From the NCBI GenBank assembly GCA_027451965.1, contig DAIDHJ010000001.1:424963-488962 (forward strand): DNA of 64,000 nt, read 5' to 3'. Source of the stretch: Candidatus Adlerbacteria bacterium (GTDB lineage Bacteria; Patescibacteriota; Minisyncoccia; Phycocordibacterales; SBAW01). How positions within the stretch are numbered: position 1 is the first letter of the stretch; each line of letters starts with the position of its first letter. The notes beneath the pieces were generated by a model that did no database searches, was not told the DNA's origin, and worked only from the letters and a program-made list of their open reading frames with translations. Of this stretch, positions 6,536-36,166 are shown piece after piece. The position numbers and the translations under genes are program-made.

Positions 6536-6636
6536 ACGCCCTGATATCCTATCTTGAAATATGAGTGTAATAAAGTTATGAATCGATACGTCTACATGCA
6601 TGTGGTCGATTATTACCCTGCGTAACCTTACTAATT

Positions 6637-7650: not shown

Positions 7651-7674
7651 AATATACGCCACGGTACACTATTT

Positions 7675-8982
7675 CTATCGCTTCTTCCACTCTTTCTCCT
7701 GCCGTACGAGCTCATCTTTTGCATATTCCGGATACGCCATAAGCATCTCGACGGTGCGTTCCATGCGCATCGATTGCGACCCTTTTATCAGTACGCAATC
7801 GCGGTCTGCAATCAAATGTTGCAATTCAGTTCCCGCAGTGCGTGCATCCTCATACTGCAAAATCGCTGTGTCTGGCAATCCTGCATCGAATGCCCCTTGC
7901 GCTATATCGCGCGCCCGGAAGCCTACTGTAGCAAGCAGGTCGACACATGTTGCAGCATACGTGCCTATTTTTCGATGTTCCGCAACCGAATAACGACCCA
8001 GCTCAAGCATATCTCCGAGCACGGCAATTGCTCTTCCTCCTATTTGCCGCTTCACGAACGCAAGCGTGTCCAGTGCAGCTGTTACCGCAGCAGGTGAAGA
8101 ATTGTACGTGTCGTCTATGAGAAGCGTTTCCTTGATGCCGCGCAGGATGTGCATGCGACCATGCGGCGGCATATACGACTGGAGTGCTTCTATGACACGG
8201 GCAATGTCCTTTCCTAATGTTTTTCCTACCGCCACTGCAGCAAGTAAGGAAAGATAGAGATGCGGCCCTACTGTTCCTAAAAGCGCAAGCGTGCGTGCCG
8301 GCTGCGCATCCACATGTATGTCTGCCTGCATGCCAATGATGGTATTGGGATCATGCGTATCCGATAGCAGCGCAAATCCGTCTGCCCACACTTCATTGTC
8401 AGCAGAGAGACCGAACATGCTCACCCGTACATCGCGTGCATGAGCCCTATCGGCAAGCGCGCGTGTGCGAGCATCGTCTCCATACAGTACGAGCGTCCCT
8501 CCAGGACGCACGGTCTGTATAAGTGATGCTTTTTCCTCTATTACCGCCTCCGGTGATGAAAAAAATTCTACATGGACCGGAATTTCCGGTAAGCGGGTGA
8601 TTACTGCGATATCAGTCGTCAACCAAGACGAGAGTGAACTGATGTCTCCAGGACGGTCTGCGCCAACCTCAAGCACCAACCACGCCGGATATTGCACACG
8701 GAACACAATGAGCAGAAGGCCGTCCAGGATATTTTGCAGCCATCCGAGCGGATTATGCCAGGCATTCGGCCGACCGAGAATAGTAAGCGGGATACCTAAT
8801 TCGCTATTAAAACTCTTTTCGCTTTTGCGCACCGACGTGTCGTAAGAAAGCGCGGTAGCAATAGCATCTTTGGTGGAAGTCTTGCCGACGCTGCCGGTTA
8901 CGGCGACAATGCGCGGTTTATATTTGCGCAACACTAAGCGTGCTTCTGCAGTGAGGAGAAATACAATGATGCGTTTCAACAT
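7675..8982 (-). CDS. murF: Mur ligase, MurF-like (UDP-MurNAc-tripeptide--D-Ala-D-Ala ligase), lacking the usual N-terminal domain
   Basis: 435 aa. Has the Mur ligase P-loop VTGSVGKTSTKD at residues about 29-40 and a C-terminal DDTYNSSPAAVTAAL, which resembles the MurF DDSYNANP motif. It sits in the position of murE/murF in the dcw cluster. The 4-nt gap to ftsI leaves no room for a missing N-terminal domain. Confidence 0.65.
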   Translation of the reverse strand: MLKRIIVFLLTAEARLVLRKYKPRIVAVTGSVGKTSTKDAIATALSYDTSVRKSEKSFNSELGIPLTILGRPNAWHNPLGWLQNILDGLLLIVFRVQYPAWLVLEVGADRPGDISSLSSWLTTDIAVITRLPEIPVHVEFFSSPEAVIEEKASLIQTVRPGGTLVLYGDDARTRALADRAHARDVRVSMFGLSADNEVWADGFALLSDTHDPNTIIGMQADIHVDAQPARTLALLGTVGPHLYLSLLAAVAVGKTLGKDIARVIEALQSYMPPHGRMHILRGIKETLLIDDTYNSSPAAVTAALDTLAFVKRQIGGRAIAVLGDMLELGRYSVAEHRKIGTYAATCVDLLATVGFRARDIAQGAFDAGLPDTAILQYEDARTAGTELQHLIADRDCVLIKGSQSMRMERTVEMLMAYPEYAKDELVRQEKEWKKR

Positions 8983-12002: not shown

Positions 12003-12433
12003 AAGATACCGAGATCGCCGAGTGCCTGTGCCATCTGATCCGCGCTGCGTTCAATACGATGCTTGTACTCTTCCCAGATCTTTTCATTCCAGATTTCAAT
12101 ACGATCTGAAACACCCGCGACAACGACCCGTGATTTGAGCTGTGCAAATTCTTTTAAAAAATCAGGAATAAGAATGCGTCCGGCGGTATCCACTTCCGTC
12201 TCAACGGCTCCTGCAAGCAAGAACCGACTCATACCTCGCGTATCTGCTTGACCGACCGGCAGTGCGGCCAGTTTCTGCGCGATACTCTGCCATGCTTTCT
12301 CCGGAAAGATGAACAGACAGGAATCAAGTCCACGAGTGACTACTACGCTTTTCCCTACTTCCTTGCGAAACTTGCTGGGAAGTGAAAGGCGTTTTTTATC
12401 GTCGAGCGTGTGAAGATATTCGCCAATGAGCAT
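11999..12433 (-). CDS. mraZ: transcriptional regulator MraZ
   Basis: 144 aa. MLIGEYLHTLDDKKRLSLPSKFRKE... shows the duplicated MraZ fold motif (DxKGR). First gene of the dcw cluster. Confidence 0.88.
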   Translation of the reverse strand: MLIGEYLHTLDDKKRLSLPSKFRKEVGKSVVVTRGLDSCLFIFPEKAWQSIAQKLAALPVGQADTRGMSRFLLAGAVETEVDTAGRILIPDFLKEFAQLKSRVVVAGVSDRIEIWNEKIWEEYKHRIERSADQMAQALGDLGIL

Positions 12434-16605: not shown

Positions 16606-17398
16606 GTTTCCACACTTCTACGTACTCAAGCTCCTCAATATTGACCGGTTCATGCAGATATATGTTCTCAAATGATTGATTAGCGGGAGCATCCACGGCA
16701 GATACGGTGCCAATAAATCCTCCTACAATACTGGGAAACACTATAGTATCTCCAGGAGCAACTGTAGTGCCCGAAGGAACTTTTCCCATAAGCGCGCCGC
16801 CGCCTTCCCCAGTAATCACAATTGGCATAATGGATCCTTGTTGTGTATGCAGCAATGCATTGTAGGTTTGATCGGGAGCGGAAAAGAGCGTGACATATGA
16901 CACTGATCGATCTGCTTGCGATATAAATCCGATTAGAGTAGTACCACCAGAGGCAACCATATCACCAGTAGCAACCCCGTCATTCGTACCCGCATCAATA
17001 AGGAGCGTATCGTATGGAAGTGCCGGAGGACGAATTAAAATAGCACCTAGGATAACAGGAGTATTCCCATCTCTCCCCAATCGACTCTTAAGGTCAAGCG
17101 TTTCTTGATAGAGTGCATTTCTGTCGGCAAGTGCTGCCGTACTGGAAGCGAGTGCTGCCTGCAGCGCCTGATTTTGAGCCATCAGTGCCGTCTTGGACAT
17201 AAACTGTGCCTGCCAATCAGCTGAGATTGCAACAAGACCTTGGCGGGCCTGTAATAGCGGCACACCAACACCCCACATACTGTTACCAAGCGGAAAGCGT
17301 AAAAGAATCACGACACCAAGCACAACTATCACTCCCACGATGAGGCCGACGTATCGCTGCAGTGGATAGCGAGTTCGATTAGGCGAGATCCTCGTCAT
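16598..17398 (-). CDS. mreC: rod shape-determining protein MreC
   Basis: 266 aa. N-terminal TM helix, coiled coil (ALQAALASSTAALADRNALYQETLDLKS) and a C-terminal beta-rich domain. Lies between mreB and mreD. Confidence 0.75.
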   Translation of the reverse strand: MTRISPNRTRYPLQRYVGLIVGVIVVLGVVILLRFPLGNSMWGVGVPLLQARQGLVAISADWQAQFMSKTALMAQNQALQAALASSTAALADRNALYQETLDLKSRLGRDGNTPVILGAILIRPPALPYDTLLIDAGTNDGVATGDMVASGGTTLIGFISQADRSVSYVTLFSAPDQTYNALLHTQQGSIMPIVITGEGGGALMGKVPSGTTVAPGDTIVFPSIVGGFIGTVSAVDAPANQSFENIYLHEPVNIEELEYVEVWKHA

Positions 17399-18434
17399 AT
17401 TCGATGAGCATATCCTTGTAGAGATCTAGGTTCTCCAAAATGACACCGGTGCCACGCGCCACCGCCGTAAGCGGATCATCAGCGACCATCACCGGCACCT
17501 TCAACCATTCCGCAAGTAGTGGAGCTAGTCCTTTGATGAGTGCGCCACCGCCACACAGTACAATACCTGAACGGATAATGTCTCCCAAAATTTCTGGTGG
17601 CGTAGTTTCGAGCACTTCTCGTATGGATTCAATGAGCGTATCGATGGATTGTGAGATTGCTTCGCGAATATCAGAATCAGTAAGCACGATTTCGCGTGGC
17701 AATCCGCTAATGAGATCACGGCCGCATACTACTGCTTCAAGGCGTCCCTCTCCTTCGAGGATCGCACCTATGGCAATCTTTACCTCTTCTGCCGTTTTTT
17801 CACCAATAAGCATCTTGAATTCGGACCGTACGTAGGAAATGATATCTTGATTGAGTTTATCGCCCGCGATGCGCAGATTCTTCGATCGCACGATACCGCC
17901 CAGAGAAAGAACAGCAATATCAGTGGTACCCCCGCCGATATCGACGATCATGTTGCCAATTGCTTCTCGAATAGGCATGCGAATGCCGAGTGCCGCCGCA
18001 ATCGGTTCTTCAACGATAAATGCTTCGCGTGCGCCGGCATTCTCCGCCGCATCTTTGACCGCACGAATCTCTACATTGGTTATACCAGAGGGAACACCGA
18101 TAACCGCTCGCGGTCCAAGCATCTTCTTCTGAATGCCCTGTGCCCGATTCATGAGGTGTGCGAGCATTTCTTCGGTTGCTTCAAAGTCAGAGACAACTCC
18201 ATCGACCAAGGGGCGCACCGCCGCAAGATGTCCAGGGGTACGGCCGAGCATTTGCTTGGCTTGTGCGCCAATCGCTACCACTTGCCCGGTTTTCTGATTG
18301 ATCGCCACCACAGACGGTTCTGTCACTACAATGCCCTTGCCACGCAAATAGACCAGCGTATTCGCCGTTCCTAGATCAATACCAACATCATTGGAAAGGA
18401 GTGGTGAAAGTTGTTGTCTAAAACGTTCAAGCAT
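17379..18434 (-). CDS. mreB: rod shape-determining protein MreB
   Basis: 351 aa. Actin-fold motifs GIDLGTANTLVY, DIGGGTTD and LCGGGA are present. Confidence 0.92.
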   Translation of the reverse strand: MLERFRQQLSPLLSNDVGIDLGTANTLVYLRGKGIVVTEPSVVAINQKTGQVVAIGAQAKQMLGRTPGHLAAVRPLVDGVVSDFEATEEMLAHLMNRAQGIQKKMLGPRAVIGVPSGITNVEIRAVKDAAENAGAREAFIVEEPIAAALGIRMPIREAIGNMIVDIGGGTTDIAVLSLGGIVRSKNLRIAGDKLNQDIISYVRSEFKMLIGEKTAEEVKIAIGAILEGEGRLEAVVCGRDLISGLPREIVLTDSDIREAISQSIDTLIESIREVLETTPPEILGDIIRSGIVLCGGGALIKGLAPLLAEWLKVPVMVADDPLTAVARGTGVILENLDLYKDMLIEYDEDLA

Positions 18435-22700: not shown

Positions 22701-23714
22701 TTAGCGCTTTGCAATGATTGCCTTTTTATAGGTATCCAAATGATCAAGAGCGATACCGGTTCCTTTCGCCACACAAAAAAGCGCTTCGTCTGCTACTTGC
22801 GCTTTGACACCCGTGCGACGCAAGACCAACTCGGGGAAATGCCGCAGCTGTGAAGTTCCTCCGGTCATGACAATACCGCGGTCAATAATATCGCTGGCAA
22901 ACTCCGGCGGTGTTTCCTGGAGCACGTCTCGGATCGCTTTGATGATTTCCCGCAGTTCCCGTCCCATCGCCTTCACAATATCGTTGGTTTTAAGTTCGAT
23001 AGATCTCGGCAATCCGGTAATAAAATCGCGGCCTCGCACCTGCATGACCAATTCTTCATCGAGAGGAACCGCCGATCCGATAGTGATCTTCACATCTTCT
23101 GCTGTTTTCTCCCCGATGGCGAGGTTGTACGTCTTCTTGATGTAATCGGCAATCGCATAATCCAACCGATCGCCTGCGCATTTGATGGAGGTTGAGGCGA
23201 CAATCCCGCCCAGAGAAATCACGGCGATATCGGTGGTGCCACCCCCGATATCAATGACCATGTTGCCGCGCGGTTCCTGAATAGGAATGCCTGCACCGAT
23301 CGCCGCCAGCACCGATTCTTTGACCACGTAGGCGCTCTTTGCGCCTGCACGAATTGCCGCTTCCACCACCGCGCGTCGTTCTGTGGATGTCACGCCGGTG
23401 GGCACCGACACCATGACTTCGGGACGGAAGAGTTGGAACGTGCCGAGCGCTTTCGTGATGAAATAGCGCAGCATCGCCTGCGTGACGCGATAATCGGCGA
23501 TCACTCCGTCTCGCATCGGACGGTACGCGATGATTTCTCCTGGCGTGCGACCCACCATTTCCTTGGCTTTCGCGCCAACCGCAAGCACCCGTTTGTCTAT
23601 TTCAGAAATGGCAACAACTGATGATTCATTGAGTACGATACCCTTACCAGGAACATACACGAGCGTATTGGCAGTGCCTAGATCGATGCCGAGTTTGGGA
23701 GTAAAAAATGCCAT
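22701..23714 (-). CDS. MreB-like actin homolog (second paralog)
   Basis: LGIDLGTANTLVYVPGKGIVLNESSVVAI, DIGGGTTD and MTGGTS motifs. The start is set at the internal Met (MAFFTPK); the ORF-track frame extends to 23744. Confidence 0.85.
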   Translation of the reverse strand: MAFFTPKLGIDLGTANTLVYVPGKGIVLNESSVVAISEIDKRVLAVGAKAKEMVGRTPGEIIAYRPMRDGVIADYRVTQAMLRYFITKALGTFQLFRPEVMVSVPTGVTSTERRAVVEAAIRAGAKSAYVVKESVLAAIGAGIPIQEPRGNMVIDIGGGTTDIAVISLGGIVASTSIKCAGDRLDYAIADYIKKTYNLAIGEKTAEDVKITIGSAVPLDEELVMQVRGRDFITGLPRSIELKTNDIVKAMGRELREIIKAIRDVLQETPPEFASDIIDRGIVMTGGTSQLRHFPELVLRRTGVKAQVADEALFCVAKGTGIALDHLDTYKKAIIAKR

Positions 23715-23789
23715 GGGGTCATGATACCTGAGGGTAACGAGCAAAACAAATTTTGTCAGGAACCGGGAGAAGATGCTAGTCTAGTCTGC

Positions 23790-25890: not shown

Positions 25891-26766
25891 ATGCAGTCTC
25901 CTTTATTCGCCTTCTTCGGCACTTCTCGGTTTGCAGTCCAGGTACTTACCGCGCTTGAGACGCACGGCTTGTTTCCGGCACTCGTTGTGTGCGCTCCGGA
26001 CAAGCCAGCAGGACGGGGTCAGCAGCTCACCCCTGCACCCACAAAAGTGTGGGCGCAAGAGCGTGATATTGATGTCATGACGCCGGAGAAACTGGATGCT
26101 GCGTTTATAGAAAGCATCAGCAATTCAGAGTGGCAGGTATTCTGTACTGCCGCATACGGCAAGCTACTGCCAGAGCAACTCCTTTCCCTTCCCGCGCACG
26201 GAGCGCTTAATGTGCATCCCTCACTGCTTCCCAAATTCCGCGGCCCTTCCCCGGTGCTTTCCGCTATTCTTGCGGACGAACGCGAGACAGGCGTTTCCAT
26301 TATTGAGATGGATGCACAAATGGATCACGGTCCCATAGTCGCCCAAGGACGAGTGGAATTGGAATCAGATGCGTGGCCGCCGCGTGGTAGTCTCTTTGAA
26401 GATCTGCTGGCTACCGAAGGCGGCAATTTGCTTGCCGAAGTACTGCCCTTGTGGGTACGTGGCGAAATCACCCCAGTGGCACAAGATGATGCGCAGGCGA
26501 CGTACACAAAGAAATTTACTGATGCCGATGCGCGGATTTCGCTCCATGATGATCCACAAGCCATGCTGCTGCGAATTCGGGCATTTGATCGCAATCCGCG
26601 CGCCTATTGCATCGCACAGACCAAAGAAGGAAAACAGATCCGCGTCATTATCACCGATGCAGAGCTCGTAGATTCTCGCCTAGTTATCAAACAAGTGATT
26701 CCCGAAGGAAAGCGGGAGATGCCGTACGAGACGTTCTTAGCTTCCGGCGCTACGGTCGTCTCCTGA
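25891..26766 (+). CDS. fmt: methionyl-tRNA formyltransferase
   Basis: 291 aa. Formyltransferase motif NVHPSLLPKFRGPSP plus a C-terminal Fmt domain. Starts 3 nt after def. Confidence 0.92.
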   Translation: MQSPLFAFFGTSRFAVQVLTALETHGLFPALVVCAPDKPAGRGQQLTPAPTKVWAQERDIDVMTPEKLDAAFIESISNSEWQVFCTAAYGKLLPEQLLSLPAHGALNVHPSLLPKFRGPSPVLSAILADERETGVSIIEMDAQMDHGPIVAQGRVELESDAWPPRGSLFEDLLATEGGNLLAEVLPLWVRGEITPVAQDDAQATYTKKFTDADARISLHDDPQAMLLRIRAFDRNPRAYCIAQTKEGKQIRVIITDAELVDSRLVIKQVIPEGKREMPYETFLASGATVVS

Positions 26767-27112
26767 ATCCGCGCAAAAAGTCTTTGATGCGCGCCGCATG
26801 CTCTCGCATGCTCCGCTGTCCTTTCTTCTTGAGCTTTGCGATTTCACGATTGAACTCTTCTACTGCCAGATCTATGGCTTCGTGGAGAGCACTGCCGTCC
26901 GCACGTGCATATATCGTCTTCTTGTTGCTCAGTAATTTGAATGCTGCCTCATACCGCTCAGGAACGGTACCGGCGTCATAGGTCAGTGTGATATCAAAGG
27001 TATAGCTTGCATCTCCTTGGAGCAGCTTCTGCGCATGTCCCAACTTCTTATCAAGATATTCGCGGATTTCCTGAGACAATTCAATACCGGAACCTTGTAA
27101 GTTGTAATTCAT
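26750..27112 (-). CDS. hpf: ribosome hibernation promoting factor (HPF/RaiA family)
   Basis: 120 aa. MNYNLQGSGIELSQEIREYLDKKLGHAQKLL...YTFDITLTY is typical of the sigma54 modulation / ribosomal subunit interface protein family. Confidence 0.8.
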   Translation of the reverse strand: MNYNLQGSGIELSQEIREYLDKKLGHAQKLLQGDASYTFDITLTYDAGTVPERYEAAFKLLSNKKTIYARADGSALHEAIDLAVEEFNREIAKLKKKGQRSMREHAARIKDFLRGFRRRP

Positions 27113-27190
27113 ATTTTTTCGCTATGTATTTTACCATACCGACTTTTCTCTAGCCTATTTTTTGAGTATACTCAGATACGTTCGCTATAT

Positions 27191-27262
27191 TCCGGTGTAG
27201 CTCAATGGTAGAGCAGCTCCCTGTTAAGGAGTTGGTTGTAGGTTCGAGTCCTACCGCCGGAG
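27191..27262 (+). tRNA. tRNA-Asn (anticodon GUU)
   Basis: TCCGGTGTAGCTCAATGGTAGAGCAGCTCCCTGTTAAGGAGTTGGTTGTAGGTTCGAGTCCTACCGCCGGAG forms a cloverleaf with a 7-bp acceptor stem, anticodon loop CTGTTAA and TTCGAGT T-loop. Confidence 0.88.
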
Positions 27263-27560
27263 CAAAGTAGTCGAGTTAAGGTCAGAATCTCCCTTTTGTC
27301 CTTGATTCATCGAGGTATTTTCTGGTTCGTAGGCTTGATTCAGTTTTGGCATCCAAAATGCAAGATATTCGCCCGCCGATGTGTAATTCGGCTTGATGGT
27401 GCGCCTGTTTTGAGTCAGGTTCGTAAACGTACAGATACCATCTATTTCGGAATGGTATTACGAACCAAATTGGGTTGAAATACCATTGGTACACCATGGA
27501 AAGTCGGCACTTGGAGATGCTGTTAAAGTGCCTCAAACTAGGGTTTAATGAAGGCGTAAT

Positions 27561-27743
27561 ATGGGTAGCAAAATCATCAAAGAGCATTTGGAGGCACTGG
27601 ATGCCGAGAAGAAATACGATAAGGAGTTTATTCGTATCCTCCAAGGAGCAAACGAGCAAAACCTGGATGGAGAGAGTGTGGCAGAGGAGGTAATTAAAGC
27701 CATCAACGCCAGATATGTTAAAAGTCAAAAAGATAACTCTTAG
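27561..27743 (+). CDS. small hypothetical protein (60 aa), first ORF of the RloC-like operon
   Basis: ATG preceded by GAAGG 6 nt upstream. Its 3' end overlaps the start of the 818-aa gene by 29 nt, and that gene has no SD of its own, which suggests translational coupling. The protein is predicted helical and acidic. Confidence 0.3.
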   Translation: MGSKIIKEHLEALDAEKKYDKEFIRILQGANEQNLDGESVAEEVIKAINARYVKSQKDNS

Positions 27744-30171
27744 CGGCTTTCGGGGGATGCTTAAGCCCCAGGAATTGACGCTCACACGCAAAGGTGAAAA
27801 CTCTCCTTCTTCCTTGGTTCTCTACGGACTAAACAGTTCGGGCAAAACATCTTTTGTCGATGGCATCGAATGGTTTCTATCCCCTAACAATGAGATTGAG
27901 TGGCTCAAGCGTGAAGATGCAAGAGAGCGTGCTTATCCGCACCAAGAAGCACAGGACGGCGATAGTTTCGTCGAGATTGATTTTGCCGATGACAAAAAAG
28001 AAATCGGTGTACTACGTAAATCTTTTAATCAAAAGAAAGTAACCCAGCCAGGTTTATCCTCCGAAACCGATTTTGAAAAGGTTTATCAATCTTTTGTCAT
28101 TCGACCTTACCTTCGGTATCTAGAAGTGATTGATTTCGTTTATAACCGCACAGGCCTAGAAAAATATCAAAAACTAGCGGGTTGGATGGGGTTTGAAAAC
28201 GAGCTTTCGTTTCAAGAAAAGATAGCGCTGGATATTCTGCCTGAACTTAAAAGAAAGGAGAAAAACCTCACGGATAACGTAGCACTATTTGAGCGTCAAC
28301 TTGTACAGCTTATGGGTGCTGGGAAATTTGCTGATGAAGCAAGCATACTCGAATTTTGCAATGCAATTTTCACAAAACATAAGGTGAATCTCTCTTCAAG
28401 CATCAAAGATATCCCAAGCAGACTCGAAGAATTAAATAAATTAAAAAGCGCAGCAGGAGTAGCTGTAAAGGTGAGCAAGCTTACCGAGGTGGAGGTCTCA
28501 CTCACTCAAGTAAGTGTGGACGACGTTTTAATCAACGCAGTAGATAAATTGAACGAGACCCTAACTCGGTTCCTTAAAGATAAAGCACTGGTTCAGAAGA
28601 TAGATGTGATTGATGTTTATACACAAGCTTTGGATATCCTGAATCGGAACACGGATGCAAAAACAAGTTGCCCTGTATGCGGTACCAGCTGGGATAGAGG
28701 CAAATTGCAGGAGCACATTAAAGAAGAACTAACCTTGCTTGAAAAGATAAAACAAGAGAAGGAAGAGATTGCTAGAACTATTACTTCAACGAAGTCTCTT
28801 GTGAGAAGAGAGCAAGAAATGGTGAAGCAAATTATTTGGAAGTACGAAGAGGGGCAGAAAATCCTCCCAAATATTTCATACGAAAAACTCCAAGAATATC
28901 AAACAGCACTAGCTGCTCTAGATGGCGAGTTTGGCGGGAACATTTTTGAGAAAGGCAGAATTTCATCTTCACTAAGTCTAGATGATATCCCTAAAATAAA
29001 TACGGAAAAAGATGCTGCATTGGCTGCTATTGGCGTCGAAAAAGCAAAGCTCCAGCTGTCAAAAGATGCTCTTAGTTTGAGTTCTGACACAGAGAAAATC
29101 GCTCAAATAAAAGATAAATGGAAAGAAATCTTGGAGGCAAAAAGTGAACTTGCTTTCTTTACTGCTGAATACAGCAAATTCGCGGGGCTAGGAAACGCAT
29201 TGGTAAAGTTAATACAAGAAAATATCAAGAGCAGGTTTGGCGAGATGTCAGCCCAAATCGGAAAGTATTTTGGGATTCTTCGTAGCGACAAGGATATTAA
29301 AGACATCGAAATATTACTTAACGAAGCAAAAGGGAAAGCGGCGGGTCGCTCCGCTGAGATTCAATTAAATTACTACGACATTACCGTCAAACCCGCGTAT
29401 AAAGTATTAAGCGAGTCCCTTCTTAATAGCTTGGGTCTCGCTGTTTACTTTGCATGCGTAAGACAATTTAACGAAGACTGCAAGTTTGTAGTTCTCGATG
29501 ACATCATGAATAGCCTCGATATTGATAACAGAGATACCGTATTGGATTTAGTCGAGCAAGAGTTTTCTGACTATCAATTTATCTTGCTGACTCACGACTT
29601 TTATTGGTTTCAGAAGATTATGCGTAGGTTCCCAAACTGGATAAGCAAGAAGATAAAAGGCTGGGATTACAAGACTGGCTCTAAGATTGATTTTGCCCAA
29701 ACAAGTAAAGAAGAAATTGAAGAGCTATTGTCTGATGCCACCACGGTTGAAGATGCTGGCTTTAAACTGGGACGCCACATTGAAGGCATCCTGAATGAAT
29801 TGTGTGAAAACCTCTGGGCAGAAATAAGATACCGATATACAAAAAACGACCCTCCCGCAATGGAAGAGCTTTTTGATGCTCTCTATAAAAGGCTGAAGAG
29901 CAAAGTGAATCAAAATCCGATTGTGGAGAAGGTTGAGAATGCTAAGAAGTATGAGCCTGTTTTACGCAATTTTACCGCACACGCTCGAAGCAATAGCGCT
30001 TCTACCGTTTCTCCAACCGAGGTAAAACGAGCAATGGAAGAATGGTTCATTCTTGAGGAGGATTTGTGGTGCCCTGATTGCAACCGCTACGTTGAGTACC
30101 ATAGGTCTAAAGATGCAATTGAATGCAAATGCGGCAAAAAGAAGCTCGAAAAGGTATCGACCAAAACCTAG
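27715..30171 (+). CDS. RloC/PrrC-like ABC-ATPase with zinc-hook coiled coil and C-terminal HEPN-like nuclease domain
   Basis: 818 aa. The N-terminus (KKITLSGFRG ... LYGLNSSGKTSFVDGIEWFL) is a RecF/SMC/AAA_13-type head with Walker A. The central coiled coil carries CPVCG, a Rad50/SbcC-like zinc hook. The C-terminal head has a signature-like LLNSLGLAVYF, Walker B/D-loop FVVLDDIMNSLD and H-loop ILLTHD. It is followed by a roughly 190-aa tail with VLRNFTAHA (an R-N-x3-H HEPN motif) and a terminal zinc ribbon CPDC...CKCG. The reading frame is unambiguous; the functional assignment is by motif only. Confidence 0.75.
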   Translation: MLKVKKITLSGFRGMLKPQELTLTRKGENSPSSLVLYGLNSSGKTSFVDGIEWFLSPNNEIEWLKREDARERAYPHQEAQDGDSFVEIDFADDKKEIGVLRKSFNQKKVTQPGLSSETDFEKVYQSFVIRPYLRYLEVIDFVYNRTGLEKYQKLAGWMGFENELSFQEKIALDILPELKRKEKNLTDNVALFERQLVQLMGAGKFADEASILEFCNAIFTKHKVNLSSSIKDIPSRLEELNKLKSAAGVAVKVSKLTEVEVSLTQVSVDDVLINAVDKLNETLTRFLKDKALVQKIDVIDVYTQALDILNRNTDAKTSCPVCGTSWDRGKLQEHIKEELTLLEKIKQEKEEIARTITSTKSLVRREQEMVKQIIWKYEEGQKILPNISYEKLQEYQTALAALDGEFGGNIFEKGRISSSLSLDDIPKINTEKDAALAAIGVEKAKLQLSKDALSLSSDTEKIAQIKDKWKEILEAKSELAFFTAEYSKFAGLGNALVKLIQENIKSRFGEMSAQIGKYFGILRSDKDIKDIEILLNEAKGKAAGRSAEIQLNYYDITVKPAYKVLSESLLNSLGLAVYFACVRQFNEDCKFVVLDDIMNSLDIDNRDTVLDLVEQEFSDYQFILLTHDFYWFQKIMRRFPNWISKKIKGWDYKTGSKIDFAQTSKEEIEELLSDATTVEDAGFKLGRHIEGILNELCENLWAEIRYRYTKNDPPAMEELFDALYKRLKSKVNQNPIVEKVENAKKYEPVLRNFTAHARSNSASTVSPTEVKRAMEEWFILEEDLWCPDCNRYVEYHRSKDAIECKCGKKKLEKVSTKT

Positions 30172-30180
30172 AGACAAAAC

Positions 30181-30348
30181 ATGCTCACGATTGACGAATG
30201 CAGAGCACTTATTCCTGATGGCGAGGAATTGTCTAACGAAGAAATTGCGCAAATAAGAAAAGACCATTACGAGATGATTCAATTGGCTTTTGATGTATGG
30301 GTCTTGCAGAGAAAAAATAAAAAACATGAACCCCGAATTGAGAAATAA
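30181..30348 (+). CDS. possible small ORF (55 aa) between the RloC-like gene and the next ORF
   Basis: ATG 10 nt after the TAG stop of the 818-aa gene. Translates to MLTIDECRALIPDGEELSNEEIAQIRKDHYEMIQLAFDVWVLQRKNKKHEPRIEK. It was absent from the ORF track because it is under 60 aa. It overlaps the next ORF start by 23 nt. SD is weak (GAGA). Confidence 0.2.
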   Translation: MLTIDECRALIPDGEELSNEEIAQIRKDHYEMIQLAFDVWVLQRKNKKHEPRIEK

Positions 30349-30784
30349 ATTATCTTGGTGGCATCTTAAGGCTAAAAAAGAGAAGGACTTATGGGTTCGC
30401 TTCGTCCTTTACTATTTGATATTTGACGCCTTTATAAGCGACGGCTCTGGAAGCGGAAATGACCAGGAGAAACTTCGCTGGTTCGTTAATAGCGAGAATT
30501 CCTTAAAAGCGAGCATAGATGGAGGATGGCAGACAAGATTACTTCCGTTGGCAAAAATTCTAAAAGGAATGTCGCCAGTTCAAGATATGCGTCCTGGGTC
30601 AACCAGAGACGTTTCTGTAATTGACGAAAACAATCTTGAAGAAGTCTTTGCTGTTATATATCAAATTAGATGCAATCTTTTCCACGGCTCAAAAGACGTC
30701 ATGAATGGCAGAGATTCCAACCTCGTTGAACATGCAGGGAATTTCCTGCGCTATATGATTGATTGGTGGTTTGTCAGTACCTGA
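30326..30784 (+). CDS. hypothetical protein with HEPN-like R-x4-H-G motif
   Basis: The start is set at the internal Met (MNPELRNKLSWWH); the ORF-track frame starts at 30290. Trp-rich and helical. Has QIRCNLFHGSKD (R-x4-H-G) in the C-terminal third. Its stop TGA (30782-30784) is followed after 1 nt by the ATG of the next ORF. Confidence 0.45.
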   Translation: MNPELRNKLSWWHLKAKKEKDLWVRFVLYYLIFDAFISDGSGSGNDQEKLRWFVNSENSLKASIDGGWQTRLLPLAKILKGMSPVQDMRPGSTRDVSVIDENNLEEVFAVIYQIRCNLFHGSKDVMNGRDSNLVEHAGNFLRYMIDWWFVST

Positions 30785-30785
30785 T

Positions 30786-31673
30786 ATGTCCAACAAATAT
30801 TTGATGCAAAAAAGAGTGAAGACCCCTATCTATACTTTTGATAAATCAGAGTACAGAGAGTTCACCTTTGAGCCTTACCGCGATAACCAATCGCTCGAAG
30901 GAGACCTCCTCGTATCCCGAACCCTTGAAGCTGAGAACGGGAACGAGGCTATGCGTAAATTCTTTACGGAATTAGAGCCCATCCTCAATGCCATATCTGT
31001 CCTGACACAGACAATCATTTTTCCCCTCCCAACTGCAAGTCATTTGCTCTATAAGCTGGAAAACAACCCAGACAATCTTTTTTACGCAAACATTGCAAAC
31101 GATAGCGAGACGGCTGGAATGGGCTTAGAAAGTGAAGTTTTTGAGGATGTAGAGAAGCTGCTGAATATTGCTAATCCTATTGCCTTTTCCTACCTGAGAG
31201 ACGCTATAGGGACACTTTCGAGTGTTCAGCAACTATCAATGCTCATAAGCGCGGCGGAAGCCTTCGCGGGGACTTCGAAGACAAAAGGCTTTTGTAAGAA
31301 GTGTGGAGAGCCTTACGAGTACTCTTCGACTGACAAGGACAAGCTGAGGCTCATCTTAGGCGATGCGCTGTACAAGAGACTCTATACCGACGGCTTACGG
31401 CACAAGCTTGCACATGGTGGGGATTTCAACGGAGAAGCAGTCGCGGCAACCGCTGGGGAAACATATTCCAGAATCAGTCTTGGGTACCTGAAAGAGACAT
31501 ACAGTCTGAGTTCACTTGAAGAAATACACGGAGCGCCGCGCTCGTTTGTTTACGAATACTCCCACCACGGAGCTAAAATGCTCAGTTCAGATGCTCCAAC
31601 TTTAAAGCTCGTGGAAGCAGAGTGGGATTCGCCTGTTAGCTTTGCTTTCGCCGCCCTACCAGCAGACTACTAA
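30786..31673 (+). CDS. hypothetical protein with CxxC and HEPN-like R-x4-H-G motif
   Basis: 295 aa starting from ATG at 30786, arranged TGAtATG with the upstream ORF. Contains CKKCGEPYEY and LRHKLAHGGDF (R-x4-H-GG). Confidence 0.5.
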   Translation: MSNKYLMQKRVKTPIYTFDKSEYREFTFEPYRDNQSLEGDLLVSRTLEAENGNEAMRKFFTELEPILNAISVLTQTIIFPLPTASHLLYKLENNPDNLFYANIANDSETAGMGLESEVFEDVEKLLNIANPIAFSYLRDAIGTLSSVQQLSMLISAAEAFAGTSKTKGFCKKCGEPYEYSSTDKDKLRLILGDALYKRLYTDGLRHKLAHGGDFNGEAVAATAGETYSRISLGYLKETYSLSSLEEIHGAPRSFVYEYSHHGAKMLSSDAPTLKLVEAEWDSPVSFAFAALPADY

Positions 31674-31895
31674 CGACAAATATTTGGGGCTGGCTATCAA
31701 ATTAGGTGAGGGCATCCTCCCGCAAAAACACGCGGGCAAAACCGAAACTGGCACTACCCAAAATCGCCTGAAGGTTCTCTACCTGATAACAGCCAGCAGT
31801 TGTCGAATGTGCTGGAGCGACACCGACGGCTGTGGGAATATAACCTCCCATCGAGCGGTTCGTATGCTATCCCTCCATTCGAGCAAGGAAATATA

Positions 31896-31921
31896 GACAA
31901 AAATATAAAAAGTATGGTATA
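31896..31921 (+). promoter_or_regulatory. sigma70-like promoter with extended -10 for the 150-aa gene
   Basis: TAGACA -35-like element, 18-nt spacer, then tgGTATAAT extended -10. It is followed by a strong SD (TTGGAGGAAAT) and the ATG at 31945. The -10 lies inside 31905-31921; spacer and -35 coordinates are approximate. Confidence 0.4.
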
Positions 31922-31944
31922 ATTTCCCCTAGATTGGAGGAAAT

Positions 31945-32397
31945 ATGAAGGTGGTTTACCATGGATCTCCCTTCCTCGGACTACGTACGGTAGAACCAAA
32001 ACTAAATCGAAGAATACGAAATGGGCAAGTGATATTTGAAGCCCATGCATTCCATGCTACTCCCCTGCGTTGGATTGCGCTTGCTTACACAGCAACTCAA
32101 TTTTCCAATAATGCATACACGATGGGCGTCGATTTATATGGTTCTTACACGAAAAGGCGAATCGCTATCTTTGGGAGTACTTCTCTTGAAGAAAGTTTGG
32201 TTCGCTTATATGGATCTGGTGGGTACCTCTATACATTTGATGCATCACATTTTATCCGCCTTCCTGGTTTAGGAGACTTGGAAGTTATCACACAAGACTC
32301 GGTGCATCCAATATGTAGTGAACTCATACTAGATCCCGTGAAGGAAATGGAACGAGAAGGAGTAGAGTTTCATTTTGTACGTAAGAAGAATACTTAA
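31945..32397 (+). CDS. hypothetical protein with N-terminal YHGS motif (possible H-Y-E ADP-ribosyltransferase-like fold)
   Basis: 150 aa with its own promoter and a GGAGG SD. The N-terminal MKVVYHGSPFLGLRT resembles the H-G-S/T NAD-binding motif of PARP/DarT/Tpt1-type ART-fold proteins. That resemblance is inference only. Confidence 0.5.
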   Translation: MKVVYHGSPFLGLRTVEPKLNRRIRNGQVIFEAHAFHATPLRWIALAYTATQFSNNAYTMGVDLYGSYTKRRIAIFGSTSLEESLVRLYGSGGYLYTFDASHFIRLPGLGDLEVITQDSVHPICSELILDPVKEMEREGVEFHFVRKKNT

Positions 32398-32512
32398 CAG
32401 GCCGATGATTCATCGGCCTGTTTTTAGATTATTATTGAAACAATATGACTTATGTATACCACGCCGTACCCTCTGAAATAATAGGATCAATACTCTACCC
32501 TCTTAATCAGTT

Positions 32513-32543
32513 ATAAGTTCGAACGTCCTCTAGTAGGCGGAGC
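32513..32543 (+). repeat. direct repeat copy 1 (ATAaGTTCGAACGTCCTCTAGTAGGCGGAGC)
   Basis: 31-nt element that reappears at 33209-33239 with one mismatch. The two copies flank the GNAT cassette. Confidence 0.65.
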
Positions 32544-32641
32544 ACTAAATTGACGAAATATAGTTTTTGTGTTAAAAAAACAGCAGACTCGGAATAATCC
32601 GATTTTTGATCTTCTCATCATATCGCACTATGGAGGTGCTA

Positions 32642-33184
32642 ATGAGCATTAGTATCGTTCTCGCCTCTCCAAAAGATGCGCGAGGTATTCAGGAGGTCTT
32701 CTACGATACGTGGCTTGCTACCTATCCCAACGAAGAACTTATGATCAGAGTTGGAGACATCAAAGACTTTCTCAAGAACCATTTATCTACCGAATCTCTT
32801 GAGAGACGACGTCAGCAGATCAGTGTGAATCCATCACCTCACGGAAGAATATTTCTGGTAGCAAAAGACGAAGAACGGGTTGTTGGAGTATGCAACGTAG
32901 TTACCTATCCAACACATAACCAGATCCACAGCCTCTACGTGCTTCCTGAATATCAACGCATGCGCATTGGGAGTGACCTATGCTATAAGGCATTTGGATA
33001 CTTCAATTCATTATTCCCCACTACTTTGTGGGTCGCCTCTTATAATTCAAAAGCCATTCGATTCTATGAATCGCTAGGGTTTCGAGATACTGGGGAGCGT
33101 AAGGAAGATGAGACGATTCGTTTCCGAAATGGGATTCGCATGCCTGAGATGGAAATGGTTCGTGAACCTAGGTCGGCACTGTAA
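32642..33184 (+). CDS. GNAT family N-acetyltransferase
   Basis: Start after a GGAGGTG SD. Contains the acetyl-CoA motif YQRMRIGSDL (Q/RxxGxG/A) and IRFYESLGF. The ORF-track frame starts earlier, at 32606. Confidence 0.8.
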   Translation: MSISIVLASPKDARGIQEVFYDTWLATYPNEELMIRVGDIKDFLKNHLSTESLERRRQQISVNPSPHGRIFLVAKDEERVVGVCNVVTYPTHNQIHSLYVLPEYQRMRIGSDLCYKAFGYFNSLFPTTLWVASYNSKAIRFYESLGFRDTGERKEDETIRFRNGIRMPEMEMVREPRSAL

Positions 33185-33200
33185 CCAGTGCCGACTTTTT
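33172..33200 (+). terminator. rho-independent terminator of the GNAT gene
   Basis: Perfect 10-bp stem GTCGGCACTG/CAGTGCCGAC with a TAAC loop that contains the GNAT stop codon, followed by TTTTT. Confidence 0.7.
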
Positions 33201-33208
33201 CATTTGTA

Positions 33209-33239
33209 ATAGGTTCGAACGTCCTCTAGTAGGCGGAGC
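33209..33239 (+). repeat. direct repeat copy 2 (ATAgGTTCGAACGTCCTCTAGTAGGCGGAGC)
   Basis: Second copy of the 31-nt element, immediately after the GNAT terminator and abutting the stop of the cytochrome b-like gene. Confidence 0.65.
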
Positions 33240-33243
33240 CTGA

Positions 33244-34617
33244 TTACTTACCCTTCCAAATTATTTTTGCGAATGGCAACCATTCAGGAATTCTATTAAT
33301 GTATGGAATATATGGAAACAAGATGAGCAACAATGCACAGAATCCTAATATTTCTGCTCCATCTCGATCACCGTTTTGATCATTAGCAAGAATAGTATGA
33401 TCCAAAAAACCAAGAGGTGCGAGCCACCACGCACCTGGTGGTATAAATCCTTTTTCTTCCCGCATCATTCCCCATTGATCGGTAGTAATATGCAGTTGCG
33501 TTGCCTCTGCATCCAGTACACCGGTATCAGCAAGGAACCGTAAGGAGTAGGTCGGCTGTATTGCAACATTTTCCGAGTCTAGGATGGGTGTATACGTACC
33601 TTGTTGTCCCATGAGTACTAATGCACTAATTACTGGAATAAGAGGGTTACTATTTTGTTGTACAACGAGAGAACCGTTATTTTGGAAATAATTTGATGCC
33701 TGTGTAATGTATTTCTGCTGCAGAGTAGTATTTGCCTCCTCAAAAAGAGCCAGATCATCTATACCATGTGTTGAGGCATAAGATGCATAAGGTATGGAAA
33801 CATAGATAGCACGTGTGTCATAAGTGTAGGGATCTATTGAGTCTAGGTAGGTAGCAGTATCGGAGGTATGGGTAAATTCACTCAAAAGCGTTTGTGCCAT
33901 AAGAGCTGGAGACTCCTTTGCAACCTGGGTAATAGTTACAGGAGCAATAAATGGTGAGGGAAATAATAATGCCAAAAATAAGATCACAGAGCCTAAGATA
34001 ATCCCTCTCAAAAATAATCTTCTATGATCCGCCGATACCATTGTATATGAGACATTTTTGCGATACGGTTTCGCAATACCTCGTATCTTCACCAAGGCAT
34101 AGTGAATACATATCACAGTAACTAGAGAAATGGGGATATATATTACATGCAAACCATATACCTGAGCATAGTTCAATGTACTGATGAATTTTCCTATGAA
34201 TGCCCCGTTATAAAAATCTGCCCCTTGTAATGCTCGGTACTGGGAAGAAAAATCACCGCGCAAACCGTACCCAAATTCTGCTTCCGTTAGTACTACTAGC
34301 AATGCAATGACTCCCACTATCCATGTCAGTTTTCTGGGCGTTCGAAAAGCGCTGGTAGAAAATACAACCAAAAAATGAAGAAGAATGATTAGCACAAAAG
34401 CCTGTGCAGACCATAGATGAATACTACGTACTACTACACCCCACGGGTTCGTGAGCCACCACGAAGGACCGAAGACAATCATGGTGAGACCAGATGCAAT
34501 CAATAGTGTTAAACAAGTCAGTGCCAAAAAACCGAGAGAATAAAAAATAGTATTTCCATAAGAAGGAACCTTGGTAATAAAGATTTTCTCTTTTGTTTTA
34601 TTCCACCACTGAAACAT
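33244..34617 (-). CDS. cytochrome b (QcrB/PetB N-terminal di-heme domain)-like membrane protein with long C-terminal extension
   Basis: 457 aa. Helix B VVVRSIHLWSAQAFVLIILLHFLVVF has two His 14 apart, followed by PRKLTWIVGV. Compare Bacillus QcrB IVRGMHHWGASLVIVMMFLHTLRVFF...PRELNWIVGV. Helix D GLHVIYIPISLVTVICIHYALVKIRGIAKP again pairs two His. The C-terminal roughly 250 aa are a non-cytochrome extension. Confidence 0.7.
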   Translation of the reverse strand: MFQWWNKTKEKIFITKVPSYGNTIFYSLGFLALTCLTLLIASGLTMIVFGPSWWLTNPWGVVVRSIHLWSAQAFVLIILLHFLVVFSTSAFRTPRKLTWIVGVIALLVVLTEAEFGYGLRGDFSSQYRALQGADFYNGAFIGKFISTLNYAQVYGLHVIYIPISLVTVICIHYALVKIRGIAKPYRKNVSYTMVSADHRRLFLRGIILGSVILFLALLFPSPFIAPVTITQVAKESPALMAQTLLSEFTHTSDTATYLDSIDPYTYDTRAIYVSIPYASYASTHGIDDLALFEEANTTLQQKYITQASNYFQNNGSLVVQQNSNPLIPVISALVLMGQQGTYTPILDSENVAIQPTYSLRFLADTGVLDAEATQLHITTDQWGMMREEKGFIPPGAWWLAPLGFLDHTILANDQNGDRDGAEILGFCALLLILFPYIPYINRIPEWLPFAKIIWKGK

Positions 34618-34689
34618 TACGATAAGTTGATTTTACACCAAAACAAATGAGGCGCTCGAACACCTCTCCAGCAGAGATAAATCAAATAC

Positions 34690-34718
34690 TTGACAAGTTA
34701 ATTAATATATTCTACAAT
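34690..34718 (+). promoter_or_regulatory. near-consensus sigma70 promoter
   Basis: TTGACA (34690-34695), 17-nt spacer, TACAAT (34713-34718). Followed by SD AAGGAGAG and an ATG at 34758. Confidence 0.55.
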
Positions 34719-34757
34719 ATATCCAGGAGATTTGGGTTATCTTTTAAGGAGAGCACT

Positions 34758-34853
34758 ATGACGTTAATCATCGATCGCAAAACCGGTTTCGTCACCTCTT
34801 CGAAAGAAGAGGCAGTGGCCGAAAAAGCTGCCGCCCATGGAGGTTCCAAATAG
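34758..34853 (+). CDS. tiny ORF (31 aa) driven by the consensus promoter
   Basis: Translates to MTLIIDRKTGFVTSSKEEAVAEKAAAHGGSK. SD GGAG lies 6 nt upstream. The ORF-track frame (34647..) starts upstream of the promoter, so the internal Met is the likely start. A weak hairpin plus T-run downstream (AAAACCC...GGGTTTTAT) may terminate it. Confidence 0.4.
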   Translation: MTLIIDRKTGFVTSSKEEAVAEKAAAHGGSK

Positions 34854-34986
34854 GATTTCCTCCCCAAAACCCTCAACAGAGAAAAAAGAATGTTGGGGTT
34901 TTATACTGTCTGTAAGAAAAATACGCGCAGCTGTAAGAAATTAGTTACTGATAAGTACCAGTAATGATGCTAATTAAAAATATACA

Positions 34987-35424
34987 TTACGAGAGTACCG
35001 ATTTTAATTCTGAAAGAAGAGCTTGTATTTCCTCATGAGAAAGTACTCGACGCTGTTCACCAAAATGATTTAGATCTCCAATTTGTACATAGGGAACAAT
35101 ATGGAAATGAGTATGTGCAATACTTTTATTTTCTTGCACTTTCCCCTCTCGAACCATAAGGGTAATATTCTCATAGCCTAACTTTCGCAACAAATTTAAT
35201 CCAACCCGTTGTAATTCCTCAATTTCGCTCTCCTCTTCTTTGGCTAAATCATCTATAGATAACACATGACGATGTGGGACTACCAGTAAATGATGTTTGT
35301 GATACGGAGCTAGCGCATACGTGAGCATAGCGTGTTTGCGTTCCACCACAGGACGATTCCCTATTTCATTACAAAAAGGACACTGTGTCATTTTTGAAAG
35401 AAAATCTGTGTATGTTTCATTCAT
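34987..35424 (-). CDS. HIT family hydrolase
   Basis: 145 aa with the histidine triad HTHFHIVP and an N-terminal CPFCN. Confidence 0.85.
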   Translation of the reverse strand: MNETYTDFLSKMTQCPFCNEIGNRPVVERKHAMLTYALAPYHKHHLLVVPHRHVLSIDDLAKEEESEIEELQRVGLNLLRKLGYENITLMVREGKVQENKSIAHTHFHIVPYVQIGDLNHFGEQRRVLSHEEIQALLSELKSVLS

Positions 35425-35512
35425 GGCAGTACTATTATACAGATAATTTCATCTTATAGATGAAAAAGCACTACATACGTAGTGCCTTTTCTAAACTAAA
35501 CAATGTAGGATA

Positions 35513-36166
35513 TTAATTATCTCCCCCTCCATCATGTGAAATAGATGTGGTTGTGGCCTGTCCTTCTCCACCTTGATCACCTGAGGTAGTACTAGAAGCT
35601 GTATCAGAATTTTGCACACCTTCTTGCATATCAGCCTGTTCACATTCGAGTTCCATTTCCTTATTCATTTCTCCTCGAGTTCTTGGTCCTACATAGCCAA
35701 ACCCCGTAGAAGATGGGTCTCCAGAAGACACAATCCCATTCGCTGCCTGCCAGCGTTGTACCGCTTGCTCAGTTTCAGAACCAAAGTAGCCGGTTACCAA
35801 TCCAGAGGGATATATGTTCTTATCTTTTGCAAGAAAAGCTTGGAGTTGCGCAACTGCAGATCCAGATCCCTGATCACTTTCACCAAACGAGAGATTGCTA
35901 GAAAGTGTGGCACAGGTGCTGCTAGCTGAAACAGAAATAGGTGCAGGTACTTGCACAGGAGTACTTGATGCTGTCGTTTGTAAATCCGCTTGCACCGTAG
36001 CTACCGTACTTGGATCTGCACCAAAGGATTGTAAGAGGTTCACTACTGCTTGAATTTGCGCATCGGTAAGAGTTGCCGCATGAACAAAAGTAGCACTACC
36101 AAGTAACGAAAGAGAACTTGCTACACCAACGAAAGTTAACAGAAAACGTTTATACCTATGTTGCAT
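35513..36166 (-). CDS. secreted protein with peptidoglycan-binding-like domain
   Basis: Signal peptide MQHRYKRFLLTFVGVASSLSLLGSATFVHA. Has a PG_binding_1-like segment (AQLQAFLAKDKNIYPSGLVTGYFGSETEQAVQRWQAANGI) and a low-complexity Gly/Asp/Gln tail. Confidence 0.5.
   Translation of the reverse strand: MQHRYKRFLLTFVGVASSLSLLGSATFVHAATLTDAQIQAVVNLLQSFGADPSTVATVQADLQTTASSTPVQVPAPISVSASSTCATLSSNLSFGESDQGSGSAVAQLQAFLAKDKNIYPSGLVTGYFGSETEQAVQRWQAANGIVSSGDPSSTGFGYVGPRTRGEMNKEMELECEQADMQEGVQNSDTASSTTSGDQGGEGQATTTSISHDGGGDN

Follow-up and report, generated by a model that had tools for sequence, protein, structure and literature searches.

In a 64-kb stretch of the chromosome of a Candidatus Adlerbacteria bacterium (the window, to which all window-wide absences and copy counts below refer), a GNAT acetyltransferase gene is enclosed by two nearly identical 31-bp direct repeats, and these repeats are probably junction scars left by site-specific insertions that took place in succession at the 3′ end of a tRNA-Asn (GTT) gene at 27191–27263 on the forward strand. 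The site is a hot spot of variation, with five alleles among strains whose flanks agree at 98–99.7%. In the arrangement that we propose, two events, or one composite event, would have given rise to the order tRNA-Asn, a 5.3-kb defence island (element 1, 27264–32543) ending in repeat copy 1, a 696-bp GNAT cassette (element 2, 32544–33239) ending in repeat copy 2, and a chromosomal flank with a convergent cytochrome b-like gene.

The repeat pair and the occupancy of the tRNA-Asn site

The 31-mer ATARGTTCGAACGTCCTCTAGTAGGCGGAGC, with the consensus ATA[A/G]GTTCGAACGTCCTCTAGTAGGCGGAGC, matches the window at two places when up to three mismatches are allowed, both on the forward strand: copy 1 (ATAAGTTCGAACGTCCTCTAGTAGGCGGAGC) at 32513–32543 and copy 2 (ATAGGTTCGAACGTCCTCTAGTAGGCGGAGC) at 33209–33239. 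The copies agree at 30 of 31 positions, the sole difference being A or G at position 4, and they have an exact stretch of 27 nt in common; a repeat search lengthens the pair to 41 nt at 88% identity. None of 100 dinucleotide-preserving shuffles of the window yielded any match to the 31-mer, and none is expected by chance, while a profile built from 14 family members finds the same two copies only (E ~7e-9), the next match having E > 2. The sequence up to 33239 ends in ...GGCGGAGC and that from 32544 starts with ACTAAATTGACG. The original prediction, made from the letters alone, had described this pair around the GNAT gene, the palindrome GTTCGAAC within the repeat, a partial echo of the 3′ segment of tRNA-Asn, and a second copy ending 4 nt before the stop codon of the convergent gene, and all of these details are found as claimed, the 4-nt gap between 33239 and 33244 being CTGA. 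Likewise, the gene, its Shine–Dalgarno (SD) sequence and its terminator are all located between the copies: the coding sequence at 32642–33184 on the forward strand (Pfam Acetyltransf_1, 4.7e-15; start at 32630 in a source annotation), the SD sequence GGAGG at 32633–32637 on the same strand, and the terminator, with a 12-bp stem, at 33170–33197.

Close relatives reveal what this locus looks like in other states. The cluster that the cytochrome b-like protein forms at 90% identity gave four short contigs of very close strains (L029, L039, L040 and L041; samples ERZ27236853, ERZ27237563, SRR13300764 and ERZ27237554), in all of which the flank from 33240 onward is 98.3–99.8% identical to that of the window. 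L039 is an empty site, at which the 3′ end of a tRNA-Asn called by ARAGORN (...CCGCCGGAGC) abuts the cytochrome b flank CTGATTACTT; in longer forms, the junction reads ...GGTTCGAGTCCTACCGCCGGAGC, or ...GTAGGTTCGAGTCCTACCGCCGGAGC, followed directly by CTGATTACTTACCC. Its reverse complement aligns to 26078–27263 (96.4%) and 33234–35581 (99.7%) of the window, the two alignments overlapping by only 6 nt, CGGAGC, and hence the 5,976 bp at 27264–33239 are inserted exactly at the tRNA 3′ end. The empty site holds no copy of the motif. At 2339–2416 of L039, which corresponds to 33240–33246 of the window, the gap from tRNA-Asn to the convergent cytochrome b-like gene measures ~4 nt and lacks a terminator.

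The other three contigs hold other DNA, which in each case ends at the same base, before CTGATT. In L029, the start of a helix-turn-helix (HTH) gene, excisionase-like in a family assignment made by eye only, is followed by a first motif copy (motif a), an unrelated 139-aa gene with its own SD sequence and terminator, and a second motif copy (motif b); the slot of the GNAT gene is thus taken by another single-gene cassette, likewise between two motif copies. A different terminator and then a variant of the motif occupy L041, and L040 carries another gene whose end reads ...AGTTCTAAACCCATCCAGCCATCGGAGC, with an arm of AGTTCTA, 15 nt and CGGAGC. Junctions at the tRNA 3′ end are precise to the base in five independent assemblies. 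These alleles establish the insertion point, the empty site and the alternative occupants, and they bear out the suggestion that the repeats, as an att-like duplication or a tandem island junction, mark the distal boundaries of successive insertions at tRNA-Asn.

It is also established that the repeat travels with the insert. Orthologues of copy 2 differ at 6 of 27 positions in L029 and at 2 of 27 in L041, whereas the adjoining flank is 98–99% identical (~1.4% divergence in L029); because copy 2 diverges far more than the flank, the repeat belongs to the inserted DNA and not to the conserved flank. The two motif copies of L029 agree with each other at 18 of 27 positions.

A pseudo-tRNA arm and a candidate recombinase

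The resemblance of the repeat to the tRNA, once thought possibly coincidental, proves systematic. At the junction, the tRNA reads TAGGTTCGA-GTCCTACCGC-CGGAGC and the repeat TAGGTTCGA-ACGTCCTCTAGTAGG-CGGAGC, the distance from GGTTCGA to CGGAGC being 15 nt in the repeat versus 10 nt in the tRNA. The hexamer CGGAGC (27258–27263, forward strand) occurs in the tRNA end, in each repeat copy and at the empty site; it constitutes the junction identity and is the only segment over which the repeat is contiguous with the tRNA end, TAGGTTCGA and GTCCT being present in it, displaced by 5 nt in total. This +5 spacing is established for three lineages, the window, L030 and L024, in each of which the tail of the motif also matches the end of the host's own tRNA-Asn: the tRNAs have GGTTCGA, 10 nt, C[GC]GAGC and the motifs GGTTCGA, 15 nt, C[GCT]GAGC. 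For instance, GCGGAGCAG is found in the tRNA end and the motif of L030 alike, and in L024 the tRNA-Asn ends in CCGAGCCA and the motif in CTGAGCCA. Even the otherwise unrelated arm of L040 keeps its AGTTCTA at the 15-nt spacing. On this comparison, the repeat appears to be a conserved pseudo-copy and no duplicate of the tRNA end, and CGGAGC would be the region of strand exchange or lie immediately beside it. A genuine tRNA fragment was rejected, as the T-stem cannot form, ARAGORN and Rfam are silent at the repeat, and Asn does not stand out by a generic alignment score (24 for tRNA-Asn versus 22–23 for Ser and Glu tRNAs).

The second of these lineages is represented by three contigs (L030–32) in which the genes left of the tRNA are syntenic with those of the window and a 3.8-kb stretch downstream of tRNA-Asn holds a GNAT gene, whose product is 48% identical to that of the window, and no integrase. 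This stretch is bounded by a degenerate motif copy that ends in AGGTTTTCACGTCCTCCAAAGAGCGGAGC immediately before AG, and the tRNA there ends in GCGGAGC, again before AG. The idea that the GNAT gene is an ancestral resident of the locus was discarded, since in L030–32 it also lies within a motif-bounded stretch and is cargo there too. A separate 37-nt intergenic direct repeat, 97% identical and unrelated in sequence to the 31-mer, follows the GNAT gene and precedes a NUDIX gene at 6599–6635 and 10149–10185 of L030, and L031 and L032 have it too.

How might such a locus be assembled? The tRNA-Asn 3′ end would act in this Patescibacteria lineage as a hot spot of site-specific integration, where circular elements with an attP of GGTTCGA, 15 nt, CGGAGC would recombine with the tRNA end (GGTTCGA, 10 nt, CGGAGC) through an exchange in or beside the shared hexamer, the tRNA staying intact after each integration. 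If strands are exchanged at the motif's 3′ edge, the tRNA arm remains at the proximal junction and the arm of the element ends up at the distal one, such that every integration would put the pseudo-tRNA arm of the element at its distal end. The tRNA-Asn 3′ end (TAGGTTCGA, 10 nt, CGGAGC) would thereby be the attB-type arm, now the proximal junction of the array; copy 1 would be the pseudo-tRNA arm, of attP type, with which element 1 ends distally and adjoins element 2; and copy 2 would be the distal, attR-type junction of the whole array. Given this order of insertion, the 31-mers would be attR-type junction scars and not the product of an in-place duplication. As neither unit encodes a recombinase, both would have been moved in trans or are now fixed relics. 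The circular intermediate, the action in trans and the class of the enzyme are what we infer beyond the alleles themselves.

A cognate recombinase, which the original prediction had proposed to look for, is not encoded in the window: Pfam scans of its open reading frames (ORFs) gave no match to Phage_integrase, Resolvase or transposase families, either within 27264–33239 or elsewhere, and none to a recombinase of any other class. Our tentative choice, preferred over a tyrosine integrase and held with less than even confidence, is a large serine recombinase (LSR) supplied in trans, because the +5 spacing fits a rule for LSR att sites, in which attB has the motif of the zinc-ribbon domain 5 bp closer to its centre than attP does (PMC3783163), and because an LSR gene overlaps tRNA-Asn in L024. 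As in the att model of the Listeria A118-family integrase from the same source (PMC3783163), a distal block of 7–9 bp is present in both partners and sits 5 bp closer in the chromosomal site, and a short identity surrounds the exchange point. The L024 gene (6278–8203) encodes a 630-aa LSR (Resolvase, 6e-20; Recombinase, 6.6e-6) and overlaps by 41 nt the 3′ part of the convergent tRNA-Asn. The motif copy of that contig lies 3 kb off, beyond the tRNA as seen from the gene and on the opposite strand, and hence is not the distal end of the recombinase element. By eye, the right-hand arms show weak matches to a dyad, at 4 of 9 positions in the attB flank and at 7 of 12, at a non-mirrored distance, at the start of element 1.

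The wider motif family and competing explanations

Relatives of the motif extend well beyond these strains. The degenerate pattern GTWCGAACGTC-N4-AG-N-AGGC-N-GAGC occurs in nine metagenome contigs and in the Doudnabacteria contig L011 (PLYC01) and matched no viral contig; the exact 27-mer has no match in a one-genome-per-species collection or among viral contigs. A profile search located co-oriented copies, four in L011 (12.7 kb; modules at 1489–1564, 7620–7695, 9140–9185 and 12105–12149), three in L025 (1888–1933, 2833–2871 and 9046–9082) and two in L027 (619–665 and 1611–1669). These modules comprise a motif ending in GAGCCA, then a terminator hairpin between an A-run and a T-run, next a partial copy in inverted orientation (..GACAATCGAACC), seen in modules of this type only and falling on a −35 region, and lastly an extended −10 box. 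In some of them, a hairpin of 26–31 nt is inserted after GTC; the insert of the long L011 variants includes CTCGGCT, a stretch complementary to the motif tail (GGCCGAG). L011 and L025 have only the modules in common (89% over 91 nt) and no other DNA, and the genes between modules in L011, L025 and L027 are ordinary accessory or membrane genes, no recombinase among them. The modules may represent a dispersed intergenic repeat or else junctions inside long tandem arrays.

An independent case in favour of integration comes from a high-GC (guanine plus cytosine) organism, in which L022 and four companion contigs (L020, L021, L023 and L028) are 92–97% identical until 4 nt past the motif and unrelated beyond. 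The host of these five contigs is apparently not a member of the Patescibacteria; its motif is GTTCGAACGTCGTCTAGCAGGCGGAGC (e.g., L023 706–732), and the segment at 2152–2460 of L023 resembles, by eye only, a C-terminal fragment of an IS110-family transposase. In L026 (1029–1878), a gene with an AbiEii toxin domain (5.3e-18) is directly succeeded by a motif copy, another case of defence or toxin–antitoxin cargo ending in the motif. Among the window proteins looked up by exact sequence, the GNAT, cytochrome b-like and HIT proteins gave no record, and the contigs that match the glyoxalase end before the hot spot.

Tyrosine integrases typically target tRNA 3′ ends, and the architecture described here could have been built by a classical member of that class, as tandem tRNA-targeting islands in which the repeat is a decayed identity segment. 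We regard this as possible, if on the unlikely side. Insertion beside an existing copy, as at copy 1 and in the comparison of L020 with L022, comes naturally to such enzymes; the excisionase-like start of the HTH gene in L029 (by eye) adjoins motif a; and these enzymes are well known for tandem arrays in which att copies recur, SGI1 being an example (PMC2297512). However, contiguity with the tRNA end extends over 6 nt only, and the T-loop block of 9 nt sits exactly 5 nt out of place, a displaced architecture that is conserved in three lineages as well as in the L040 arm and that decay would not give, and no tyrosine recombinase is present in any locus examined. GNAT genes are common cargo of integrons, whose gene cassettes are likewise single-gene, co-oriented units each ending in a conserved site, and the modules of the L011 type fold as imperfect hairpins of ~95 nt, all of which would suit an integron-like platform with the GNAT unit as gene cassette and the 31-mer as attC. 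Strictly understood, this part of the original prediction fails, and we give it hardly any credence: the window contains neither intI nor another tyrosine recombinase, and no attC; its copies span 27–31 nt, versus 57–141 nt for an attC, and have no inverted partner or RYYYAAC/GTTRRRY boxes, GTTCGAA being unfit for GTTRRRY; the primary site is a tRNA gene and no attI; and the cassette brings its own terminator. Nor does assembly offer an easy way out. An exact repeat of 27 nt is of k-mer size, and at least five alleles coexist in related samples, so strain variants might have been joined serially and element 1 and the GNAT unit might not be truly adjacent; yet L029, whose contig name begins with k141 and presumably denotes a large-k assembly, independently shows two copies around one gene, the window copies differ at one flanking base, and the 548-kb contig suggests a long-read or curated assembly, which together make an artefact very unlikely.

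The 31-mer could also be a fragment of a dispersed Patescibacteria repeat akin to repetitive extragenic palindromic (REP) sequences or miniature inverted-repeat transposable elements (MITEs), the strain differences then reflecting a recombination-prone or unstable region. The related motifs in nine metagenome contigs and L011, the 2–4 copies in modules of 95–140 nt (terminator plus inverted partial copy) with hairpin-insertion variants in L011, L025 and L027, and the restriction of the likeness between L011 and L025 to those modules all speak for it. This reading nonetheless seems improbable in view of the base-precise tRNA 3′ junctions in five assemblies beside a motif-free empty site, the presence of two copies in 64 kb with no target-site duplication or terminal inverted repeat around them, and the co-orientation of copies within each contig, as a tandem array predicts. 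The earlier caveat that the repeat might belong to a REP-like family scattered without relation to cassettes is answered in part by the 64 kb of the 548-kb genome that were scanned: related motifs do occur several per contig in other Patescibacteria, but each copy seen in the lineage of the window lies at the boundary of an element at tRNA-Asn. A cis-regulatory element, whether structured RNA or operator, duplicated by chance around the GNAT gene is as good as dismissed: the 27-mer can form GUUC/GAGC and GUC/GGC helices, to which longer variants add a loop hairpin, and in other contigs the motif lies 45–160 nt upstream of genes, yet there is no Rfam match, covariation is essentially nil with the paired positions invariant, copy 2 faces a convergent gene, and the empty-site strain is free of the motif. 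Two tRNAs alone reach the Rfam gathering score in the window, and the L011 motif has no match at E <= 1; with the putative helices made of invariant bases, a structured RNA or riboswitch was rejected. A coding role (the motif reads FERPLVGGA and then stop in several copies) was set aside as well, because third codon positions are invariant and variation falls at the first and second, L024 and L026 contain an in-frame TGA, and the frame is shifted by the 31 nt added in the long variants. A dif/Xer site would fit in length, but there is no dyad around a 6–8-bp spacer and several copies occur per contig. Finally, a CRISPR remnant, an integron attC and a MITE with inverted repeats at its ends were likewise discarded as readings of the window copies.

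Several observations weigh against successive LSR-mediated insertions and deserve to be set out together. Neither the 64-kb window nor the L030–32 island encodes a recombinase of any class, so that, unlike in the Listeria model, none is available in cis. Serine integrases normally recombine attP with attB only, and insertion beside an attR-type copy (copy 1; L020 versus L022) is non-canonical for them and more typical of tyrosine integrases, which counts mildly against the assignment. The right-hand arms have no convincing dyad symmetry or clear mirror motif, and the separation of the distal block from the hexamer's 3′ end slightly exceeds that of the Listeria paradigm (a few bp beyond positions 16–24 if exchange occurs at that end), the fit to that paradigm holding only if exchange takes place at the CG of CGGAGC. 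Copies 1 and 2 agree at 30 of 31 positions, versus 18 of 27 for the L029 pair, and gene conversion could explain this as well as two related insertions. Moreover, the order of element 1 and then element 2 rests on a single assembly, and the 2–4 copies per contig between ordinary genes in L011, L025 and L027 resemble a dispersed intergenic repeat as much as a tandem array. Whichever of the two applies in those contigs, the reading of the window, where the empty allele is free of the motif, is unaffected.

Contents of the array, known systems and meaning

Element 1 (forward strand, 5,280 bp, GC 0.426) carries defence-type cargo without a recombinase. Its five ORFs, between tRNA-Asn and copy 1, are a 60-aa frame at 27561–27743, an SMC-like ATPase of 818 aa at 27715–30171 (Pfam SMC_N, 1.9e-13; PADLOC LmuB, 4.4e-24), and further frames at 30290–30784, 30759–31673 and 31945–32397, with a terminator at 32396–32422. 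Two ORFs within 27561–31673 carry Rx4H motifs that are HEPN-like by eye. From these matches, the cargo looks like a Lamassu-like defence system, and the pair of small ORF and ATPase recurs in unrelated defence islands (L042 and L043) beside restriction–modification, GmrSD and reverse-transcriptase genes. Homologues of the ATPase, the best 65% identical, were found in unrelated defence islands without the motif context, and no island integrase was reached through them. Element 2 (forward strand) is a single-gene cassette whose GNAT protein, apart from one 100% match on a 548,072-bp NCBI contig, has its next-best homologue at 49% identity; that contig, presumably the source genome, matches the GNAT and two proteins beside it at 98–100%. 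The Lamassu-like ATPase, the AbiEii-like toxin gene upstream of the motif in L026 and the GNAT gene of L030–32 are cargo typical of islands and support the integration model.

On the proximal side, tRNA-Asn is intact (ARAGORN; Rfam tRNA, 72 bits). On the distal side, the chromosomal flank at 33240–34617 (CTGATTACTTACCC..., the putative right arm of attB) consists of a 4-nt spacer and the cytochrome b-like ORF at 33244–34617 on the reverse strand (Pfam Cytochrom_B_N_2, 3.7e-16), whose relatives in Patescibacteria metagenome-assembled genomes are 48–66% identical. Window genes outside the array are housekeeping or transporter genes. GC content falls from ~0.52 in 1–27190 to ~0.41 in 33240–60000, the drop lying exactly at tRNA-Asn; because the empty-site strain L039 has the same juxtaposition, the step is native and no chimeric join. 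Two MreB/Mbl paralogues at 17379–18434 and 22701–23744, both with Pfam E-values below 1e-129, account for a further repeat of 121 nt and 73% identity (D1).

Staphylococcal cassette chromosome (SCC) and pseudo-SCC elements, which are mobilised by the CcrAB large serine recombinases, sit at the 3′ end of staphylococcal rlmH, and the Enterococcus cassette chromosome is similar. By analogy, the architecture of the tRNA-Asn array most resembles these composite islands and the tandem islands of tRNA genes, such as those at enterobacterial asn- and phe-tDNA and the SGI1 arrays. With the latter it shares insertion at an intact tRNA 3′ end, a distal repeat that here echoes the tRNA end in part, empty and alternative alleles among close strains, and defence and accessory cargo; unlike them, it has a pseudo-copy with 5 extra bases, islands without an integrase and a unit that is a single gene of 0.7 kb, in an uncultured host with a genome of ~0.55 Mb. 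To SCC and pseudo-SCC it is likened by architecture and not by sequence: cassettes are arrayed at one chromosomal site with a short direct repeat per junction, and some modules lack a recombinase and are served in trans, an LSR being suspected here too, but the target is a tRNA gene instead of rlmH and no ccr-like gene is seen in the window. Integron cassettes and clusters of attC sites lacking integron integrases (CALINs) are similar in their small, co-oriented single-gene units that end in a recombination site and contain no recombinase gene, and different in that intI, attI and an attC hairpin with R″/R′ boxes are missing here and the cassettes have their own terminator and, apparently, their own promoter. 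As for REP sequences, MITEs and enterobacterial repetitive intergenic consensus (ERIC) elements, other Patescibacteria hold the motif in an intergenic module of ~100 nt that is an imperfect palindrome with insertion variants, whereas the window copies are a 31-nt arm only, at base-precise borders of strain-variable DNA.

Patescibacteria have tiny genomes and depend on hosts, and to our knowledge little has been published on how they acquire genes; a shallow literature search found no description of this hot spot, and a search for the repeat sequence returned unrelated oligonucleotides only. The kind of system is familiar, that is, a tRNA-linked integration hot spot. What is unusual is the combination of single-gene, recombinase-less cassettes of 0.56–0.7 kb, five alleles, and a +5 pseudo-tRNA arm common across Patescibacteria. 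Should the array turn out to be the work of a classical tyrosine integrase, the finding would be an ordinary one. A bolder idea, which we put forward as speculation and consider rather unlikely, is that of a lineage-wide, integron-like cassette platform on tRNA-Asn, in which an LSR encoded elsewhere in the genome would serve to insert, stack and exchange self-contained cassettes (promoter, ORF, terminator and a 27–31-nt arm) along with larger defence islands. If such a platform exists, the multi-copy modules of L011, L025 and L027 would be long cassette arrays, and Patescibacteria would possess a gene-capture system with its recombinase in trans, distinct from integrons and SCC elements. If the arm is the attP half-site of a serine recombinase, it would provide a short, searchable signature for mobile cargo across the phylum and, with the tRNA end, a compact natural attB/attP pair as a possible basis for genetic tools in organisms that are almost intractable.

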